A stretch of 64,000 bases of DNA, taken from the NCBI GenBank assembly GCA_964398865.1, contig CAYNOO010000002.1, positions 3,588 to 67,587 on the forward strand. Reading direction: 5' to 3'. The DNA is from an uncultured Candidatus Saccharibacteria bacterium. GTDB lineage: Bacteria > Patescibacteriota > Minisyncoccia > Phycocordibacterales > Phycocordibacteraceae. This document shows positions 13,719 through 26,362 of the stretch, one piece after another. The notes beneath the pieces are model-generated. The model was not told the DNA's origin. It worked only from the letters and a program-made list of their open reading frames with translations, and did no database searches. The position numbers and the translations under genes are program-made. Position 1 is the stretch's first letter. Each line of letters begins with the position of its first letter.

Positions 13719-14687
13719 ATGCATAGAGGATTTTGGGACAAGCTAGAAAAGCCGTTTTTGGTACTTGCACCGCTCGCGGATGTAACGGATGCGGCATTTC
13801 GGCGTTTGATTGCAAAGTATGGCAAGCCGCAGGCGATGTGGACGGAGTTCGTTTCTGCGGACGGGTTGGTGCGCGCGCCTGAGGAGGGAAGAAAGAAACT
13901 CCTGGCGGATTTGATATACACCGAAAGCGAACGCCCTATCATCGCTCAGTTCTTTACCGGTAATCCAGAGCACATGGAAAAAACAGCTGCTCTTGCGCGA
14001 GAACTTGGTTTTGATGGCATTGATATCAACATGGGTTGCCCAGACAAATCAATCGAGAAGCAAAAAGCGGGCGCTGCGATGATGAAAGATCCAACACTCG
14101 CGAAGGTGGTAATTAAAGCTGCAATCAAAGGTGCTGGTAGTTTGCCTGTCTCAGTGAAGACACGAATCGGCTACAACAAAGATGAGCTTGCAGAGTGGCT
14201 GCCGCATCTCTTAGAAACCGAACTCGCGGCAATCACCATCCATGCACGCACCAGAAAGGAAATGTCTCTCGTGCCGGCACACTGGGAGAAAGTAGCTCAA
14301 GCTGTAGAGCTGCGCGATTCGCTCAACCCCGATGTTCTTATTCTCGGGAATGGTGATGCCTTAGGGATTGAAGACGCGAAGAAGAAAGCCGAGCAATCAG
14401 GCGCTGACGGTGTGATGCTCGGTCGTGCAATATTCGGGAACCCGTGGCTCTTCGGCTCCGGGCGTGATTTGGTATCTATAGAAGAGCGGTTGCGGGTTAT
14501 GGTTGAACACTCCAAGCTCTTTGAGGAGCTTTTACCGCACAAGAGCTTCGCTATAATGAAGAAACACTATAAAGCCTATGTTGCGGGTTTTGATGGTGCT
14601 GCAGAGCTTCGGGCGGAACTGATGAGAGCAGAAAATGCCACAGAAGTAGGGGGCGCTGTGGACAGGTTCTTTACTTCAACGCATTAG
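13719..14687 (+). CDS. dus: tRNA-dihydrouridine synthase
   Basis: The FLVLAPLADVTDAAFRRL segment, the DINMGCP motif and an FMN-binding TIM-barrel layout. Confidence 0.85.
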   Translation: MHRGFWDKLEKPFLVLAPLADVTDAAFRRLIAKYGKPQAMWTEFVSADGLVRAPEEGRKKLLADLIYTESERPIIAQFFTGNPEHMEKTAALARELGFDGIDINMGCPDKSIEKQKAGAAMMKDPTLAKVVIKAAIKGAGSLPVSVKTRIGYNKDELAEWLPHLLETELAAITIHARTRKEMSLVPAHWEKVAQAVELRDSLNPDVLILGNGDALGIEDAKKKAEQSGADGVMLGRAIFGNPWLFGSGRDLVSIEERLRVMVEHSKLFEELLPHKSFAIMKKHYKAYVAGFDGAAELRAELMRAENATEVGGAVDRFFTSTH

Positions 14688-14713
14688 CCGTGTAGACTAC
14701 CTCTAATTTAGGT

Positions 14714-14806
14714 ATGTCGATTCGCCGCAAGCTTCGCCACTTCCAGAAACAGGAATTTAATTTCCATCAAACCCTCCATTCATTGGAGGGTTTTTTCAAT
14801 CTATGA
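14714..14806 (+). CDS. candidate 30-aa leader peptide (MSIRRKLRHFQKQEFNFHQTLHSLEGFFNL)
   Basis: The ORF runs through the terminator-like hairpin. Its TGA stop overlaps the carA ATG as ATGA. Confidence 0.25.
   Translation: MSIRRKLRHFQKQEFNFHQTLHSLEGFFNL
14769..14796 (+). promoter_or_regulatory. terminator/attenuator hairpin sequestering the carA Shine-Dalgarno (aaaCCCTCCattcatTGGAGGGtttttt)
   Basis: 7-bp GC-rich stem plus a T6 run, 6 nt upstream of the carA ATG. GGAGGG inside the stem is the only Shine-Dalgarno-like sequence for carA. Confidence 0.5.
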
Positions 14807-15879
14807 AACTCATCTTGAAAGACAAGTCGGTTTTCGAAGGCGAAAGTTTTGGTGCAGATGTACCCATCGCTGGCGAAGTCGTTTTCAACACGGGCATGGT
14901 TGGTTACGTCGAGAGTCTCTCGGATCCTTCGTACGCCGGGCAGATACTCGTCTGTACGTATCCTCTCATAGGTAACTATGGCGTGCCGAGCCCAGAATTC
15001 TTCGAATCAAATAAAATTCATGCAGCTGGTCTCGTGGTGAGCGAGTACAGCGAGAAGTACTCGAGCCACACTGCGAAGCAGTCGTTATCTGAATGGCTCA
15101 AACGCTCTGGTGTCCCGGCGCTCTCTGGTGTTGATACGCGTGCGATTACGAAGCGACTTCGCGAGCATGGTGTCATGTTGGGGCAGCTCGTTCCTCACGG
15201 TCGCCCTGGGAAATTCACAGATCCCAATGACGAGAATCTCGTTGCGCAGGTAAGTGTTGCGAAAAAAGAAATTTACGGAAATGGGAAAACCGTCATTGTT
15301 GCGGTGGACTGCGGTATGAAAGAGAATATCGTGCGCTCGTTATTGAAGTTTGATGTCACGATCATCCGTGTGCCCTGGGATTACGATTTCACGAATGAAA
15401 ACTACGATGGCTTGTTTCTTTCGAACGGTCCCGGTGACCCGATGATGTGTGGTGCCACGGTCGCACACATCCAGAAGGCGATAGAAAGCGGGAAGCCAAT
15501 CTTGGGAATCTGTCTCGGCACTCAGCTTCTGGCGCTTGCAGCCGGAGCGCGCACGTACAAATTAAAGTACGGACATCGCGGTCAGAATCAGTCATGTATT
15601 GATATTCTTGGAAATGCAAAACCTGGCGCTCGTGCGAAAGACCGCTGCTACATAACCTCACAGAATCACGGCTACGCGGTAGATAAGAAGACTCTCCCGA
15701 AAGAGTGGAAGGTCTGGTTTGAGAATGCGAACGACGGCTCTGTCGAAGGAATCAGACATACAACGAAGCCATGGCGTGCAGTGCAATTTCATCCAGAGGC
15801 ATCTCCTGGACCTACTGACACAAGTTGGATTTTTGAGGATTTCATTCGCACGGTAAAGGCGGCAAAAAAACATGCTTAA
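14803..15879 (+). CDS. carA: carbamoyl-phosphate synthase small (glutaminase) subunit
   Basis: CPSase small-chain N-domain plus a class I glutamine amidotransferase domain with the catalytic Cys (ILGICLGTQLL). Confidence 0.95.
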   Translation: MKLILKDKSVFEGESFGADVPIAGEVVFNTGMVGYVESLSDPSYAGQILVCTYPLIGNYGVPSPEFFESNKIHAAGLVVSEYSEKYSSHTAKQSLSEWLKRSGVPALSGVDTRAITKRLREHGVMLGQLVPHGRPGKFTDPNDENLVAQVSVAKKEIYGNGKTVIVAVDCGMKENIVRSLLKFDVTIIRVPWDYDFTNENYDGLFLSNGPGDPMMCGATVAHIQKAIESGKPILGICLGTQLLALAAGARTYKLKYGHRGQNQSCIDILGNAKPGARAKDRCYITSQNHGYAVDKKTLPKEWKVWFENANDGSVEGIRHTTKPWRAVQFHPEASPGPTDTSWIFEDFIRTVKAAKKHA

Positions 15880-18800
15880 GAAACCTAAAAAAATCCTTAT
15901 CTTAGGCTCAGGCGGACTCAAAATCGGTCAGGCTGGTGAATTTGATTATTCGGGCTCGCAGGCAATCAAGGCCTTCAAAGAAGAGGGTATTGGGACTGTC
16001 CTCATGAATCCCAACATTGCGACGGTGCAGACCGACAAAGGTTTGGCAGATTCCGTGTACTTCCTTCCGCTCACGGAGAAATTTGCAGAAGATGTGATAC
16101 GACAAGAACGCCCCGACGCGATTGCGCTGAGCTTCGGCGGGCAGACCGCGCTCAATCTTGGGTTAACACTCGAAGAGAACGGTACGTTGAAGAAATACGG
16201 CGTGCACGTGTTAGGTACGCCAGTGTCTGTCGTCCGCGACACGGAAGATAGAGATCTTTTTATAAAACGTTTGGACGAGATTGACGTTAAGACTGCGCGA
16301 AGTTTTGCTGCGCGAAGCATCAAGGATGCAGAGAGAGCTGCCGAGAAACTCGGATACCCCGTGATGGTACGCATGGGTTTTGCTCTCGGCGGTGAAGGAT
16401 CAGGACTTATTCGCTCCGCGGCGGAACTTCGGCTGCGTCTGGCAGAGGCATTCAAACGTAGTCCTCAGGTGTTGATTGAAGAATATCTCGCCGGATGGAA
16501 AGAGGTGGAGTACGAAGTGGTGCGCGATGCGGCGGATAACTGCATCGTTGTGTGCAACATGGAGAACATAGACCCGATGGGAGTCCACACGGGAGAATCA
16601 ATAGTGGTCGCTCCGTCGCAGACGCTTACCAACGAGGAGTATCATCGTCTTCGCGAAATCGCGATTAAAACGATTCGTCATCTTGGGGTCGTCGGTGAGT
16701 GCAACATTCAATACGCACTTCACCCCAAAACAGGCGATTACCGCGTCATAGAAGTGAATGCACGTCTCTCGCGCTCATCCGCGCTCGCTTCAAAGGCGAC
16801 AGGGTATCCGCTTGCATTCATCGCGGCAAAACTCGCGCTCGGTCATTCACTCACAACACTCGTAAACTCCGTCACCAAGACAACGACAGCCTGTTTTGAG
16901 CCGGCACTTGATTATCTTGTCTTGAAAGTTCCGCGCTGGGATTTGAACAAATTTGAGAATGCTGTCTCGAAAATCGGAACCGAAATGAAGTCGGTGGGTG
17001 AGGTGATGGCAATTGGGCGTTCCTTTGAAGAGGCTCTTCAGAAAGCGCTTCGCATGCTCACCATAGGCGCTGATGGTTTTACCTCGCATCGAAGCAGTAA
17101 CTTCCGTATCCCGACGTACCTTGAGGAAATTAACGAACCTACCACTAGACGTGTATTTGCTATCGCAGAGGCGCTCCGTCACGGCGTCTCCGTAGAGAAG
17201 ATTCATGAGCTTTCAGGAATCACGCCCTGGTTCTTGGAGAAGATGAAAAACATTATTGATGTTGAAAAGAAGTTACACCGTAACGCGCTCACTCCAGCGC
17301 TCCTAAAAGTTGCGAAGCAGCATGGATTCTCTGACATCCAGATTGCCGTTGCGAAGAAAAGCACTGAAGCAAAAGTTCGTGCACTTCGACAGAAGTCCGG
17401 AGTCATCCCTTCTGTAAAGCAAATCGACACTTTGGCAGGGGAGTTTCCCGCACAAACAAATTATTTGTATCTCACCTACCACGGCTCGGAACATGATGTG
17501 GCTCCCAGTCGCGGCGCCATCGCGGTCTTGGGAAGCGGTCCGTATTCTATTGGCTCCTCGGTGGAGTTTGATTGGTCAAGCGTGCAAGTCTTGCAGACGC
17601 TCAAAGCGGAAGGAGAGAAGACTGTAATGATTAATTACAATCCCGAAACTGTCTCTACCGACTACGACATGTCTGATCGCTTGTATTTTGAAGAGCTTTC
17701 ACTCGAGCGGGTTTTGGATATTGTGGAGTTTGAGCGCACAAAGGGTGTGGTGGTTTCAACGGGAGGTCAGATTCCTAATAACCTTGCGCTGCCGCTCCAT
17801 ACAAACGGCGTAAAAATTCTCGGTACGCATCCAGAAGACATCAACCGCGCGGAAGATCGTCACGTATTTTCGCAACTCTTGGACAAACTCAACATTGATC
17901 AGCCTGCATGGGCGGAATTGACCACGACAAAAGCAGCAGCTCTCACCGCTAAAAAACTCGGCTATCCGGTCTTGGTGCGCCCCTCCTACGTACTCTCGGG
18001 TGCTGCTATGGGAATCGCCTCCGACAAAGCGTCATTGATAAAGTTCTTAGAGCGCGCGGTTGATGTTTCGTCAGAACATCCGATAGTCATCTCGAAGTTT
18101 ATCGAAAATGCGCGCGAGATTGAGATAGATGGCGTAGCGGCGAAAGGCAAGCTCGCCATTTACGCGATTACCGAGCACGTGGAGAACGCCGGCACCCATT
18201 CGGGAGATGCGACTGTGGTATTACCTGCGCAGCGCACGTACCTGGAGACTATTCGCCGCGCGAAGCATGTCACGAAACAAATCATCAAAGAGCTCAAAAT
18301 CACTGGCCCCTTTAACATCCAATTCCTAGCGAAAGATAACAATCTTCAGGTCATCGAATGCAACGTCCGCGCATCGCGTAGTTTCCCGTTCGTATCAAAA
18401 GTCACTCGATACAATTTCATCGAGCTTGCGACGAAAGCTTTCTTAGGTAAAGACATCAGCGGAGAATACCGGACATTGGAACTTGATTACGTCGCAGTGA
18501 AGTCTCCACAATTTTCATACAACCGTATCAAGGGCGCAGACCCGCTTGGCTACGTCGAGATGGCATCAACGGGAGAAGTCGCATGTTTCGGCGACTCCTA
18601 TCCGGAAGCTTTATTGAAATCCATGCTCTCCGCAGGATTCAGAATTCCCAAGAAGAACATTCTGATTTCCTTAGGCGGTGAGGAGAATAAGGTCAAACTC
18701 TTGCCGGCAATTCAGAAACTCTCTGAGATGGGATTCAAACTTTTTGCCACCGAGCACACGGCTGATTTCCTAAAAACCCATAACATCAAGTCAGAGCGCG

Positions 18801-19087
18801 TCCATAAAATAAAGAGCAAACAAGAGCCAAATGTGCGCACGCTTCTTGATTCTGGAAAGCTTGATCTCATCATCAATCTTCCAAACCGAGGCTTGGTGAG
18901 AGAGGGGAACGGCAAGAATGGCTCTGACCCGTCCGACGGTTTCATCATCAGGCGGAAAGCCGTGGACTTTAACATCTCTCTTATCACCAACCGCCAGCTC
19001 GCAGAGGCTTTCGCGATGGCGCTCGCAGAAGTTGGAGAGAAGGGTTTGAGCGCAAAAGCGTGGGATGCGTATCAGAAAGATGCTTAA
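15872..19087 (+). CDS. carB: carbamoyl-phosphate synthase large subunit
   Basis: 1071 aa with duplicated ATP-grasp halves and a C-terminal MGS-like domain. Overlaps carA by 8 nt. Confidence 0.95.
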   Translation: MLKKPKKILILGSGGLKIGQAGEFDYSGSQAIKAFKEEGIGTVLMNPNIATVQTDKGLADSVYFLPLTEKFAEDVIRQERPDAIALSFGGQTALNLGLTLEENGTLKKYGVHVLGTPVSVVRDTEDRDLFIKRLDEIDVKTARSFAARSIKDAERAAEKLGYPVMVRMGFALGGEGSGLIRSAAELRLRLAEAFKRSPQVLIEEYLAGWKEVEYEVVRDAADNCIVVCNMENIDPMGVHTGESIVVAPSQTLTNEEYHRLREIAIKTIRHLGVVGECNIQYALHPKTGDYRVIEVNARLSRSSALASKATGYPLAFIAAKLALGHSLTTLVNSVTKTTTACFEPALDYLVLKVPRWDLNKFENAVSKIGTEMKSVGEVMAIGRSFEEALQKALRMLTIGADGFTSHRSSNFRIPTYLEEINEPTTRRVFAIAEALRHGVSVEKIHELSGITPWFLEKMKNIIDVEKKLHRNALTPALLKVAKQHGFSDIQIAVAKKSTEAKVRALRQKSGVIPSVKQIDTLAGEFPAQTNYLYLTYHGSEHDVAPSRGAIAVLGSGPYSIGSSVEFDWSSVQVLQTLKAEGEKTVMINYNPETVSTDYDMSDRLYFEELSLERVLDIVEFERTKGVVVSTGGQIPNNLALPLHTNGVKILGTHPEDINRAEDRHVFSQLLDKLNIDQPAWAELTTTKAAALTAKKLGYPVLVRPSYVLSGAAMGIASDKASLIKFLERAVDVSSEHPIVISKFIENAREIEIDGVAAKGKLAIYAITEHVENAGTHSGDATVVLPAQRTYLETIRRAKHVTKQIIKELKITGPFNIQFLAKDNNLQVIECNVRASRSFPFVSKVTRYNFIELATKAFLGKDISGEYRTLELDYVAVKSPQFSYNRIKGADPLGYVEMASTGEVACFGDSYPEALLKSMLSAGFRIPKKNILISLGGEENKVKLLPAIQKLSEMGFKLFATEHTADFLKTHNIKSERVHKIKSKQEPNVRTLLDSGKLDLIINLPNRGLVREGNGKNGSDPSDGFIIRRKAVDFNISLITNRQLAEAFAMALAEVGEKGLSAKAWDAYQKDA

Positions 19088-19097
19088 ATGAAGGGGT

Positions 19098-19721
19098 ATG
19101 GATGACGTCATACAGATTCTGAAAGACGCGGGCGCAATACTAGAGGGTCATTTCATCGGTGTTTCGGGACGGCATCTTCCTGTGTACATCAACAAGGACG
19201 CATGGCTCTTGCACACGGGACTCGTCTCAAAGATCTGTCGGATGCTTGCTGAGCTGAATAAAGATAATCAGATAGACGTAGTCGTGGGACCCGCTGTCGG
19301 TGGCGTCGTTATTTCACAGTGGACGGCGTACCACTTATCAGAAATCACTGGCAGGGAAGTATTGAGTGTTTTTACTGAAAAGACTCCAGAGGGTGGGCAG
19401 ATACTAAAGCGAAACTACGACAAGGTGGTAGCGGGGAAGCGTATTCTCGCCGTTGAGGACACGGTCACGACGGGCGGGTCCGTGAAAAAAACTATTGACG
19501 CTATTGCTTCGGCTGGAGGAAATGTCGTGCAGCTTTCACTTATTGTGAATAGGAATCCTAAAGAGGTGACCGCGGCAACGTTTGGTCTGCCGGTAAGCGC
19601 GCTTGCCGAGATTGATATGGAAAGTTACGAAGAAAATGAAGTGCCGGAGTGGTTGAAAGCAATTCCCATCAACACTGAGTTCGGGCACGGTGCGAAGTAT
19701 CTTAAAGAACATATGAGTTGA
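19098..19721 (+). CDS. pyrE: orotate phosphoribosyltransferase (type I PRTase)
   Basis: PRPP-binding motif RILAVEDTVTTGGS, plus its position inside the pyr cluster. Confidence 0.7.
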   Translation: MDDVIQILKDAGAILEGHFIGVSGRHLPVYINKDAWLLHTGLVSKICRMLAELNKDNQIDVVVGPAVGGVVISQWTAYHLSEITGREVLSVFTEKTPEGGQILKRNYDKVVAGKRILAVEDTVTTGGSVKKTIDAIASAGGNVVQLSLIVNRNPKEVTAATFGLPVSALAEIDMESYEENEVPEWLKAIPINTEFGHGAKYLKEHMS

Positions 19722-19722
19722 T

Positions 19723-20790
19723 ATGTTGCAAACTCCTTTTTACGACCCAACAAAGTCATACGACGACAATTATGCGAATGGTCCCTTTGGTGTGTTCGCG
19801 GGTGTCTCCGCATATGAAGAGAGAGGCGAGCCGGAGTATGAGATTTTCGGGCACAAAGTCTACACGCCATTCGGCATCCCGGCAGGACCCTTATTGAATA
19901 GCAAATTCATGAAAGGTGCGTTTGATAACGGCTTTGATGTATCGATTTACAAGACAGTACGAAGCGGGGTCTACCCCTGTCATCCGTTCCCGAATGTGCT
20001 TGCCGTCCACATTCCTGGCGATCTCAGCCTTGAAGCGGCAGCACGCGAGCCTCTCGTTGCGGATACGAATTACGAAGAGCCTATTTCCATAACCAATTCG
20101 TTCGGCGTTCCTTCTAAAGAAGCCCGAACGTGGCAGGATGATTTCAAGGAGTCAGAGAAATATGCGAAGAAAGGTCAGCTCGCAATCTTAAGTTTCATGG
20201 GAACGGTGAAAGAAGGGCAGACGCATCAGGAGTTCGTGGATGACTACGTGCTTGCTGCGAAGCTTTCAAATGATGCAGGTGCCAAAGTGCTCGAAGTAAA
20301 CTTGTCGTGCCCGAACATCGGCAACGAAGGATTAGTCTGTTACGACTTGAAGACTACTGAAGAAGTGTGCGCTGGTATCCGCAGTGTCATCGGCACGACG
20401 CCCTTGATATTGAAAGTCGGCTACTACAAGGAAGACGCTGACATCAAGGAGCTCGGAAGGATCGCCGACAAGTACGCAGACGGCATTTCCGCAATCAATA
20501 CCGTACAGGCAACTATCATCGACAAAGACGGTACTCAGGCGCTGCCGGGTAAGAATCGCGTAAAGAGTGGCGTGTGCGGGGCATCCATAAAATGGGCAGG
20601 TTTGGACATGGTGAAGCGCTTGCACGCCATCCGAAGCGCGGGAGGTTTAAACTTTAAGATTTGCGGAGTGGGTGGCGTAACGACGGCAGCTGATTATGCC
20701 GCATATCGTGCCGCGGGGGCGGATATCGTGATGAGTGCAACGGGTGCGATGTGGAATCCAAATCTGGCGATAGAGATTAAGTCGTTATAA
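19723..20790 (+). CDS. pyrD: dihydroorotate dehydrogenase family protein
   Basis: LEVNLSCPN signature and TIM-barrel flavoprotein motifs. Carries an N-terminal extension. Confidence 0.75.
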   Translation: MLQTPFYDPTKSYDDNYANGPFGVFAGVSAYEERGEPEYEIFGHKVYTPFGIPAGPLLNSKFMKGAFDNGFDVSIYKTVRSGVYPCHPFPNVLAVHIPGDLSLEAAAREPLVADTNYEEPISITNSFGVPSKEARTWQDDFKESEKYAKKGQLAILSFMGTVKEGQTHQEFVDDYVLAAKLSNDAGAKVLEVNLSCPNIGNEGLVCYDLKTTEEVCAGIRSVIGTTPLILKVGYYKEDADIKELGRIADKYADGISAINTVQATIIDKDGTQALPGKNRVKSGVCGASIKWAGLDMVKRLHAIRSAGGLNFKICGVGGVTTAADYAAYRAAGADIVMSATGAMWNPNLAIEIKSL

Positions 20791-20804
20791 ATTAGCATTC
20801 GTAC

Positions 20805-21710
20805 ATGAAAATACAGCACGTCATCGAGACTCAGCAATTTGACCGCGAAGCACTTAATAAGCTTTTCAAGCTTGCAACTTCTTTTGAAAAAAATCGCACG
20901 AAGGATCTCGACGGAAAGATTATGGCGTCGTTGTTTTTCGCACCCTCAACCCGCACCCGTCTTTCTTTCGAGTCTGCCATGTATCGCCTCGGCGGTCATG
21001 TTATCTCAATGGAGAATGCGAGCGAATCGTCCTCATCGACAAAAGGGGAGACTATTGAGGACACTATCCGCATCGTAGACAATTACGCGGATGTAATCAT
21101 TCTTCGGCATCCAGAAGTCGGTACGCTCGCGAGGGCTGCTGCTGTTTCGGAAGTTCCCGTCATTAATGCCGGCGACGGCATCGGTCAGCATCCCACGCAG
21201 GCGTTCTTGGACCTGTACACCATAGAGCGAGAGATAGGTCGCACTGACAATTTCCATATCGCATTCGTGGGGAATCTTGCCTACTATCGCGCAGCCCGTT
21301 CCCTCGCGTATCTTCTTTCAAAATACGAGAACATTACGATGACGTTCGTATCCGGTTCGGAGCTTAGGATGAAGGATGACGTTAAAGAGCATCTCAAAGA
21401 GAAAGGGGTTACGTTTACCGAGACTGAAGACTTGGAGAAAGCGATGAGCGAAGCTGATGTTGTCTATCAGACGCGTATCGCGGAAGAATGGATTCCTGAT
21501 CACGACCAATACGAAAAGCTTCGCGGAAAGTACGTCATCACACGCCCGATGACCGATCACATGAAAGACGGCGCCATTCTCATTCATCCACTGCCGCGCG
21601 CAGGCGAGATCATGCCGGAAGTCGACGACTCTCCCCATGCGGTTTATTTCAAGCAGGCAGAATACGGAGTACTCGTGCGCATGGCACTCTTGAAAACTCT
21701 CTTAGCGTAA
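20805..21710 (+). CDS. pyrB: aspartate carbamoyltransferase catalytic subunit
   Basis: STRTRLSFE carbamoyl-phosphate-binding motif and HPLP motif. 301 aa. Confidence 0.9.
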   Translation: MKIQHVIETQQFDREALNKLFKLATSFEKNRTKDLDGKIMASLFFAPSTRTRLSFESAMYRLGGHVISMENASESSSSTKGETIEDTIRIVDNYADVIILRHPEVGTLARAAAVSEVPVINAGDGIGQHPTQAFLDLYTIEREIGRTDNFHIAFVGNLAYYRAARSLAYLLSKYENITMTFVSGSELRMKDDVKEHLKEKGVTFTETEDLEKAMSEADVVYQTRIAEEWIPDHDQYEKLRGKYVITRPMTDHMKDGAILIHPLPRAGEIMPEVDDSPHAVYFKQAEYGVLVRMALLKTLLA

Positions 21711-25190: not shown

Positions 25191-25261
25191 TGGGGAGTCG
25201 TCTAATGGTAGGACAGAGGCCTTTGAAGCCTTTAATTGGGGTTCGAATCCCTGCTCCCCAG
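25191..25261 (+). tRNA. tRNA-Gln (anticodon UUG)
   Basis: A U1-A72 acceptor pair (TGGGGAG/CTCCCCA), anticodon loop CTTTGAA and T-loop GGTTCGAATCC. Followed by hairpin terminator AATCCCGATGtgtaagcCATCGGGATTtt. Confidence 0.85.
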
Positions 25262-25262
25262 C
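25244..25262 (+). repeat. direct repeat DR1, the 3' end of tRNA-Gln (CGAATCCCTGCTCCCCAGC)
   Basis: An identical 19-mer recurs at 25433-25451. Confidence 0.85.
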
Positions 25263-25432: not shown

Positions 25433-25451
25433 CGAATCCCTGCTCCCCAGC
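25433..25451 (+). repeat. direct repeat DR2, a partial tRNA-Gln 3'-end copy (att-like)
   Basis: 19/19 identity to DR1. It sits immediately before the AT-rich islet. Confidence 0.85.
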
Positions 25452-26130: not shown

Positions 26131-26156
26131 TTTTAAATGGCTCATTGGGACTCATA

Positions 26157-26190
26157 ACTAATAAATGTCCGACCGGACATTTATTAGTTA
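26157..26190. terminator. perfect hairpin AACTAATAAATGTCCGaccgGACATTTATTAGTT (hairpin family B, copy 1)
   Basis: 16-bp stem downstream of the islet genes. Shares the AAATGTCCG/CGGACATTT core with 57630-57663. Confidence 0.6.
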
Positions 26191-26362
26191 TGGGGGTTTC
26201 TGAGTTTTACATGAAGAGTGAGTAGATCTAAACCGCGCACTGCAGGACTGACCCGCGGAGCATTTTTAGTGCATTTGATATACTGCAGGGATTACTCTAA
26301 CTAAGAACAGGAAGCGTCGCGCTTCAATGAACAGTTACGCGACGCGATTCTGACTGAATCGC

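Follow-up and report, generated by a model that had tools for sequence, protein, structure and literature searches.

A candidate ribosome-dependent attenuator at the head of the carA-pyr operon in Patescibacteria

Attenuation of pyrimidine genes has been described in several bacteria, and its best-known form depends on the position of a translating ribosome relative to RNA polymerase. In the Escherichia coli pyrBI operon a 135-bp leader-peptide gene contains the attenuator, and only a ribosome in tight coupling suppresses termination, the degree of coupling being set by pausing (PMC4824070; PMC5021804). The initially transcribed pyrBI sequence, AATTTG, moreover undergoes reiterative transcription that depends on uridine triphosphate (UTP) (PMC7039003; PMC6524683). 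For carAB of Pseudomonas aeruginosa, a leader peptide and pyrimidine attenuation have been reported, as cited from Kwon et al. (PMC4997734). Here we analyse a 64,000-nucleotide stretch of DNA (the window) from contig CAYNOO010000002.1 of assembly GCA_964398865.1, assigned to an uncultured Candidatus Saccharibacteria bacterium of the Patescibacteriota, in which a short open reading frame (ORF) and an intrinsic terminator precede the operon carA-carB-pyrE-pyrD-pyrB. We consider it probable that the segment from 14670 to 14806 is a ribosome-dependent transcription attenuator of this operon that works in the manner of the E. coli pyrBI leader.

Patescibacteria, also called the Candidate Phyla Radiation (CPR), have tiny genomes with few recognisable regulators, and little is known about the control of their genes. 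To our knowledge, there is no cultured model for the group. Our literature searches found no earlier description of a CPR carA leader.

The locus resembles pyrBI of E. coli and Salmonella, with its leader gene pyrL, in that a short leader-peptide gene with an intrinsic terminator within it directly precedes a pyrimidine operon, the leader is U-rich and no antiterminator RNA is present, a coupled ribosome being the antiterminator, a role that for the window is only proposed. The predicted initial AATTT of the window and its closest relatives is furthermore identical to the first five bases of the pyrBI AATTTG. The two leaders nevertheless share no sequence homology and belong to different phyla, and the one in the window would control carAB-pyrE-pyrD-pyrB. 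Unlike pyrBI, the leader ORF of the window and its relatives begins 0-9 nt from the predicted 5' end, without a Shine-Dalgarno (SD) sequence, and its stop codon overlaps the first structural gene (AUGA); most relatives differ further from pyrBI by carrying two tandem elements, each a hairpin followed by a T tract, inside the ORF, at nt 28 and nt 65.

Other known systems can be set beside it. In E. coli rph-pyrE, said to be treated in the 2008 review by Turnbough and Switzer, translation of an upstream ORF, coupled to transcription, reportedly decides whether a terminator forms before pyrE. There, a full-length gene, rph, stops just before the attenuator, whereas the window has a dedicated short ORF that runs through its terminator; a Kerfeldbacteria locus (L064), in which a 10-codon ORF stops in the hairpin loop, comes closer to the rph-pyrE geometry. 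The PyrR attenuators of the Bacillota (RF00515) also place intrinsic terminators in the leaders of pyrimidine operons, but they contain a PyrR binding loop and antiterminator/anti-antiterminator structures, none of which was found in the window. P. aeruginosa carAB has the same first gene and is reported to have a leader peptide from the carA promoter region and pyrimidine attenuation (PMC4997734), a likeness of general plan, but it belongs to an unrelated lineage with an unrelated sequence, uses SD-led translation and is under additional arginine/ArgR control. Ribosome-mediated pyrimidine attenuation is a known kind of control, and the Patescibacteria element is without homology to any curated family; it is set apart by three traits predicted from sequence: a start that lacks SD and is leaderless or has a short leader, terminators in tandem whose distances are fixed, and a hand-over at AUGA that is obligatory.

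The terminator directly upstream of carA consists of a 5' arm AAACCCTCCA (14769-14778), a loop TTCAT (14779-14783) and a 3' arm TGGAGGGTTT (14784-14793), and its T6 tract (14791-14796) is followed by CAATCT and the carA ATG at 14803, the tract ending 6 nt before the start codon. Folded alone (14766-14797), the hairpin had a free energy of -16.1 kcal/mol (z = -5.1), a stability that none of 200 dinucleotide shuffles reached, and it was the dominant structure when the 143-nt intergenic segment was folded. A strict scan of the + strand of the 64-kb window for hairpins followed by T runs returned 6 sites, of which this was the strongest, with approximately 2.6 per 64 kb expected from shuffles. A standard terminator scan of the window did not list it, probably because an A/T extension of the stem consumes part of the T tail. 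This terminator, and the ORF of 30 codons (14714-14806) that spans it and ends at a TGA overlapping the carA ATG as ATGA, had been pointed out in a first-pass annotation of the stretch; both are present, as were all the other sequence features that it had named, each at the position it had given.

The leader ORF is not significant by itself, as 161 ORFs of at least 25 amino acids overlap the region from 12 to 24 kb; its significance comes from its conservation in relatives only. CarA had its best relatives, at 65-73% identity, only among groundwater-type metagenome contigs and Patescibacteria assemblies carrying the labels Kaiserbacteria, Paceibacterota or Parcubacteria. Genome and metagenome scans revealed no relative above approximately 73% CarA identity, and the exact CarA protein was not on record. 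A first set comprised 62 Patescibacteria carA loci, and a test that made no use of start codons was performed on 110 non-redundant loci.

An ATG-started ORF of 22-83 codons extended from just past the promoter to the start of carA in 58 of the 62 loci. Its stop codon was the TGA of ATGA in 53 of these 58 and lay within -3 to +14 nt in the other five; where the second codon of carA does not begin with A, the leader stopped 10 nt further on. Two loci (L003 and L017) fitted the layout after the carA start had been shifted 2-3 codons upstream. The leaders had 26 distinct lengths, and 56 of 58 shared the same length modulo 3, with only 24% of shuffled leaders being free of stop codons. Leaders with insertions of 27-170 nt after the terminator remained open up to carA, as in L001, where an ORF of 83 open codons crosses a 170-nt insertion and reaches its stop 3 nt short of carA. 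Since the choice of ATGs could bias such a count, we also examined the frame irrespective of start codons: in 104 of the 110 loci the frame ending at ATGA had no stop codon over 85 nt or more upstream of carA, compared with 43 and 55 loci for the other two frames. The first-pass annotation had reasoned that a hairpin kept without its ORF would speak against an attenuator, and the opposite was seen. From this conservation we infer that the leader ORF would be translated through the terminator.

Taken over approximately 110 non-redundant Patescibacteria loci, the shared layout is a sigma-70-type promoter, an ATG 9-15 nt after it, and an ORF that crosses one or two covarying terminators and closes at the carA start or beside it. 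The leaders fall into a majority class and a smaller subgroup to which the window belongs (the window, L001, L004, L005, L009, L011 and L085). In the majority class the order is TTGACx, a spacer of 16-17 nt, TATACT, 4 nt, TTTTA and the ATG, followed within the ORF by hairpin 1 (ACACCC-N4-GGGTGT, then A and T5-8) at nt 28-43 and by hairpin 2 (typically GCCCGC-N5-GCGGGC, with a T tract) at nt 65-81, the carA ATG coming a few nt later. The positions of both hairpins are fixed in nearly all majority-class loci. The window subgroup has TTTACT, 17 nt, TAGACT, 6 nt, AATTT, 4 nt and the ATG, a weak GGAA...TTCC hairpin in the place of hairpin 1, and a terminator of the form CCUCCA...UGGAGG. In the window the weak hairpin lies approximately 10 nt downstream of where the majority class holds hairpin 1 and its T tract, and it is kept in the alignment of the 7 subgroup sequences, without two-sided changes. 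A Kerfeldbacteria locus (L075), from a different Patescibacteria class, has the same design, and so has a further lineage (L088/L090).

Two kinds of variant were seen among these leaders. In L052 (2938-3003) the leader ORF, with a hairpin and T7, is fused in frame to carA, the terminator lying inside an N-terminally extended carA frame. In L018, L022, L023, L026, L034, L036, L042, L043, L050 and others, GC-rich palindromic inserts of approximately 27-45 nt (e.g. CCTGCGGAGCCTTGGCGAAGCAGG) lie between hairpin 2 and carA, inside the leader ORF, and the frame is always kept open. These inserts look like a small repeat family.

Covariation of the hairpin in relatives, which the first-pass annotation had suggested as a check, was found. 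In an alignment of 22 majority-class leaders 92% of the cells were paired in two helices, one of them hairpin 2, the homologue of the window's terminator, and 6 pairs had changed on both sides, a covariation score that was reached by none of 500 shuffles; sliding the partners by 1-3 columns lowered the paired cells from 92% to 27-52%. Within the window subgroup the terminator was kept through one compensatory pair (C-G in the window, U-A in relatives) and changes from U-A to U-G. Together, the conserved frame (104/110 loci; 56/58 leaders) and the covarying hairpins support the proposal of that annotation, namely that the carA-pyr operon is headed by a pyrBI-type attenuator made up of a leader peptide and a terminator.

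The layout is also specific for carA. A covariance model of the majority-class leader gave one match per locus, always directly before carA, in approximately 50 Patescibacteria loci (578 kb searched). Of 62 carA genes, 44 had a terminator-like hairpin no more than 60 nt from the start codon; the corresponding figures were 8 of 150 for the remaining ORFs of those loci and 2 of 47 for the ORFs of the window. The sole other match of the covariance model, at 26132-26216 of the window (26.6 bits, E = 0.17), falls on a long AT-rich hairpin that follows a small gene and is probably an ordinary terminator matched by chance. Outside the Patescibacteria, four Bacteroidota loci (L062, L065, L068 and L073; Prolixibacteraceae/Mangrovibacterium) carry an unrelated hairpin, ATGCGT...ACGCAT followed by T8, approximately 35-75 nt upstream of carA, which suggests an independent terminator-type leader on this gene.

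The gene upstream of carA in the window is dus, coding for a tRNA dihydrouridine synthase, and the simplest explanation of the hairpin would be that it is the dus terminator and nothing else, the 30-codon ORF being there by chance. It lies 82 nt downstream of the dus stop codon on the same strand, and short ORFs abound. The relatives make this explanation very improbable. Only 9 of 61 have dus upstream of carA, the usual neighbour being a divergent gene of approximately 420 codons whose product has, by inspection, a GIY-YIG/UvrC-like N-terminus. The homologous leader is present whatever the upstream gene, which is mostly divergent, and the hairpins are therefore not explained as the terminator of that gene. 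The frame kept across the different leader lengths is likewise at odds with a chance ORF, and a conserved promoter lies between the dus stop codon and the hairpin.

This putative promoter is of the sigma-70 type. All 6 subgroup members from the genome set share its TTTACT-17 nt-TAGACT geometry, and the leader ATG follows the -10 box after 15 nt in the window subgroup, as against 9 nt in 50 loci of the majority class. All 7 subgroup members, and L088/L090, have kept the AATTT of the predicted start. An automated promoter scan found nothing between the terminator and carA, and it also missed the TTTACT/TAGACT pair (8/12, against a cutoff of 9). A separate carA promoter after the terminator was considered and rejected, as there is no room for one: the 6 nt and the T tract contain no -10/-35 pair. 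In 23 of 57 relative loci a DnaA-box-like motif (TTATCCACA, with at most one mismatch; background 0.23 per kb) occupies a fixed position approximately 10 nt upstream of the leader -35 box, 48-59 nt before the leader ATG (e.g. L045, L023 and L047). The window's own promoter lacks it. The motif may be a DnaA site, or it may belong to the promoter of the divergent UvrC-like gene.

The translation signals of the window bear on how carA itself may be started. Throughout the window, strong -10-like hexamers peak exactly 6 nt before ATGs (e.g. at the gene starts 3725, 35795, 48324, 57960 and 59164), which is the geometry of leaderless mRNAs and suggests that this organism uses them as a rule. Of 45 gene starts, only 2 carry an SD-like 4-mer between -20 and -4, one of the two being the carA terminator arm. 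The first-pass annotation had taken the GGAGGG of this arm for the only SD sequence of carA, hidden by the hairpin, and regulation could accordingly be translational, the hairpin sequestering the carA ribosome-binding site. GGAGGG is indeed the sole SD-like sequence before carA, and stems of the CCUCC/GGAGG type recur in several lineages (L006, L019, L039, L054 and L093). However, SD-like sequences are rare in the window, the GGAGG lies 13-14 nt from the ATG, a spacing that is too long, and it is replaced by GGGGG in the closest relatives (L001, L009 and L085), with the pairing kept, and by GCGGG in most relatives. SD sequestration is on these grounds highly unlikely, and that part of the annotation does not hold. 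The AUGA overlap, and the extension of the ORF to carA in every case, speak for termination-reinitiation rather than an SD-led start, and we infer that ribosomes may pass from the leader into carA in this way.

Control by a protein binding to the leader RNA was considered next to these. The annotation had raised a PyrR-box-like motif as an alternative mechanism, and CCAGAAACAGG is indeed found at 14743-14753. Its conservation did not extend even to the window subgroup, and no PyrR (RF00515) match was obtained at E <= 10 on the window leader or on one majority-class leader. Rfam, applied to the whole window at the gathering threshold and to the leaders at E <= 10, returned neither a PyrR site nor another relevant family. 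The PyrR box was rejected on these grounds. Among the part of the window ORFs that was scanned, the only phosphoribosyltransferase was pyrE, on which the PyrR models scored far below their cutoffs, and no pyrR was found among them. With no Rfam family at threshold on the window leader or the majority-class leader, the element is an analogue, and not a homologue, of the enterobacterial pyrL.

When the leaders were folded without the 3' arm of the terminator, no conserved competing (antiterminator) structure emerged: the 5' arm was unpaired in the minimum-free-energy fold of the window leader, and no more than 10 of 41 majority-class leaders had it paired to 60% or above. This makes the ribosome itself the likely antiterminator. 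It also leaves a PyrR-like protein, or any other trans factor binding the CCAGAAACAGG region in the window or hairpin 1 in relatives, with nothing to stabilise or disrupt. The sequence of hairpin 1 (ACACCC-N4-GGGTGT) is far more conserved than a plain terminator requires, but it is also constrained by the overlapping reading frame, and hairpin 1 is absent from the window. We regard attenuation by such a factor as having very little chance of being correct.

The slightest probability of all goes to a classical leader-peptide attenuator of the trp/his/phe type that senses an amino acid such as arginine. Carbamoyl phosphate also feeds arginine synthesis, and the best Rfam match on the leader, although below threshold, was Phe_leader (29 bits, against a gathering score of 55). 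The leader ORFs of relatives nevertheless show no conserved run of regulatory codons, which together with the missing antiterminator argues against a trp/his-type switch; moreover, the ORF runs through the terminator rather than stopping before it, and the operon holds pyrB, pyrE and pyrD, not arg genes.

For the ribosome-dependent attenuator that we favour, the following course of events may be proposed. The sigma-70-type promoter (-35 TTTACT, -10 TAGACT) would give a transcript starting at approximately 14705, and ribosomes would load on the AUG near its 5' end (14714), in an organism that appears to use leaderless or near-leaderless initiation with essentially no SD. They would then translate the 30-codon leader ORF with the intrinsic terminator (14769-14796) inside it. 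If the first ribosome follows closely behind RNA polymerase, it would cover the 5' arm of the hairpin, no terminator would form and transcription would continue into carA; if the polymerase is ahead of the ribosome, the hairpin would form and the transcript would end at the T tract. The polymerase would be expected to run ahead when UTP is plentiful, U-rich stretches then being copied without pausing, and by analogy with pyrBI UTP is the likely signal. Ribosomes finishing the leader at UGA would reinitiate on the overlapping AUG, which would be the route by which carA is translated without SD. On transcripts reading in from dus the leader AUG would be internal and probably untranslated, and the same hairpin would double as the dus terminator.

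The U-rich stretches that precede the terminator differ between the two groups. Relatives have hairpin 1 with A and T5-8 at ORF nt 28-52, and the window has only its weak U-rich hairpin. Hairpin 1 is the weaker of the two majority-class hairpins, at about -8 kcal/mol, and lies at a fixed 28 nt from the AUG; we suggest that it may be a pause or synchronisation site, with hairpin 2 as the terminator. UTP might act at a second step as well, through reiterative transcription on the AATTT that is kept at the predicted start, a possible lead drawn purely from the likeness to pyrBI.

Several points weigh against this attenuator. The window's own leader escapes the majority-class covariance model (R1), and its homology is read from position, promoter, ORF and terminator and not from a scored match. 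The loci are phylogenetically related, so that counting them exaggerates how many events were independent. Every intrinsic terminator is followed by a T tract, which is in itself no sign of UTP sensing. The window subgroup is without hairpin 1 and its T tract, which would be the natural pause site in the majority class, and has only a weak AT-rich hairpin. The leader AUG of the window lies approximately 9 nt from the predicted 5' end, and not at it, efficient ribosome loading being assumed. Finally, the exact start site, ribosome-polymerase coupling as the means of antitermination, UTP as the signal and reinitiation at AUGA are all predictions made from the sequence.

The most serious rival in our assessment, although an unlikely one, is a leader without any metabolite sensing, in which, given initiation solely at 5'-proximal AUGs, the short ORF brings ribosomes to carA and the terminator is an insulator that stops untranslated read-through from dus or elsewhere, properly initiated transcripts being constitutive. 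In its favour, the organism dispenses with SD and shows leaderless geometry, the ORF always reaches the carA start even where the terminator is 30-170 nt away, and dus has no other terminator in the window. On the other hand, one or two terminators are retained even in the majority of relatives, in which a divergent upstream gene leaves nothing to insulate against; carA could simply be leaderless and reach the same outcome with no leader at all; other genes carry the layout far less often than carA does; and elsewhere pyrimidine genes use this very layout for UTP sensing.

The coordinates of the features are collected in Table 1. The 3' end of dus, which is co-directional with carA, overlaps the -35 box of the leader promoter, and 115 nt separate the end of dus (14687) from the carA ATG; the DusB match of dus (213.7 bits) falls under the model cutoff of 293.3 bits.

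Table 1. Coordinates of the leader element, the upstream gene and the operon in the window
Feature	Coordinates	Strand	Basis
Putative -35 box TTTACT	14670..14675	+	17 nt upstream of TAGACT; geometry shared in relatives
Putative -10 box TAGACT	14693..14698	+	TAGACT or TATACT kept in 57 loci
Predicted start A14705 (7th nt after the -10 box) and short 5' untranslated region AAUUUAGGU	14705..14713	+	-10 geometry only
Leader ORF, 30 codons (MSIRRKLRHFQKQEFNFHQTLHSLEGFFNL), ATG start	14714..14806	+	ORF list; frame and position kept in relatives
Weak AT-rich, U-rich hairpin GGAA-TTTAAT-TTCC (GGAAUUUAAUUUCC) inside the leader ORF	14752..14765	+	-3.9 kcal/mol, z = -2.7
Intrinsic terminator (putative attenuator): 10-bp stem, 5-nt loop, T6	14769..14796	+	Folding, subgroup alignment
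ATGA stop/start overlap, proposed termination-reinitiation site into carA	14803..14806	+	Leader stop position in relatives
dus (tRNA dihydrouridine synthase)	13719..14687	+	Pfam PF01207 5e-61; NCBIfam DusB 3.5e-63
Putatively regulated operon carA-carB-pyrE-pyrD-like-pyrB	14803..21710	+	Pfam and NCBIfam
carA	14803-15879	+	Pfam, NCBIfam
carB	15872-19087	+	Pfam, NCBIfam
pyrE	19098-19721	+	Pfam, NCBIfam; TIGR01367 above cutoff
pyrD-like	19723-20790	+	Pfam, NCBIfam
pyrB	20805-21710	+	Pfam, NCBIfam

Pfam and NCBIfam confirmed the operon carAB-pyrE-pyrD-pyrB named in the first-pass annotation, pyrD only as a pyrD-like gene. The genes overlap or are tightly packed and are without SD sequences, and since pyrB lies within the operon, this carbamoyl-phosphate synthase serves pyrimidine synthesis. 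A pyrC gene was identified by Pfam and NCBIfam on the - strand of the window. The pyrD-like product scored 80 bits, against an NCBIfam cutoff of 269, and matched the DHO_dh domain from residue 118 onward only; it is apparently a divergent dihydroorotate dehydrogenase whose N-terminal extension is unexplained. Elsewhere in the window, the final 19 nt (cgaatccctgctccccagc, 25244-25262) of a tRNA gene (25191-25261) recur at 25433-25451, approximately 170 nt downstream and just before a cluster of small ORFs, and this repeat looks like the remnant attachment site of an integrated element.

Beyond the window, we tentatively suggest, with the chances somewhat short of even, that these leaders form an undescribed Patescibacteria-wide cis-regulatory family. 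In such a family, a leaderless or near-leaderless ORF would be the sole route of ribosomes to a carA without SD, one or two terminators at fixed distances from the 5'-terminal AUG would be overridden by the pioneer ribosome, and pyrimidines would be sensed without a protein, through UTP-dependent pausing at U tracts and possibly through UTP-dependent start-site choice or reiterative transcription at TTTTA or AATTT.

If the attenuator is real, these bacteria would have a protein-free feedback switch on de novo pyrimidine synthesis, and a regulatory leader would be feasible without SD-led initiation, by translation of the leader from the 5' end and hand-over of the ribosome at AUGA. The conserved geometry, with 28 nt from the AUG to hairpin 1 and hairpin 2 at nt 65, leads to testable predictions on the spacing between ribosome and polymerase, and the element offers a ready marker for annotating the starts of carA operons in Patescibacteria genomes.

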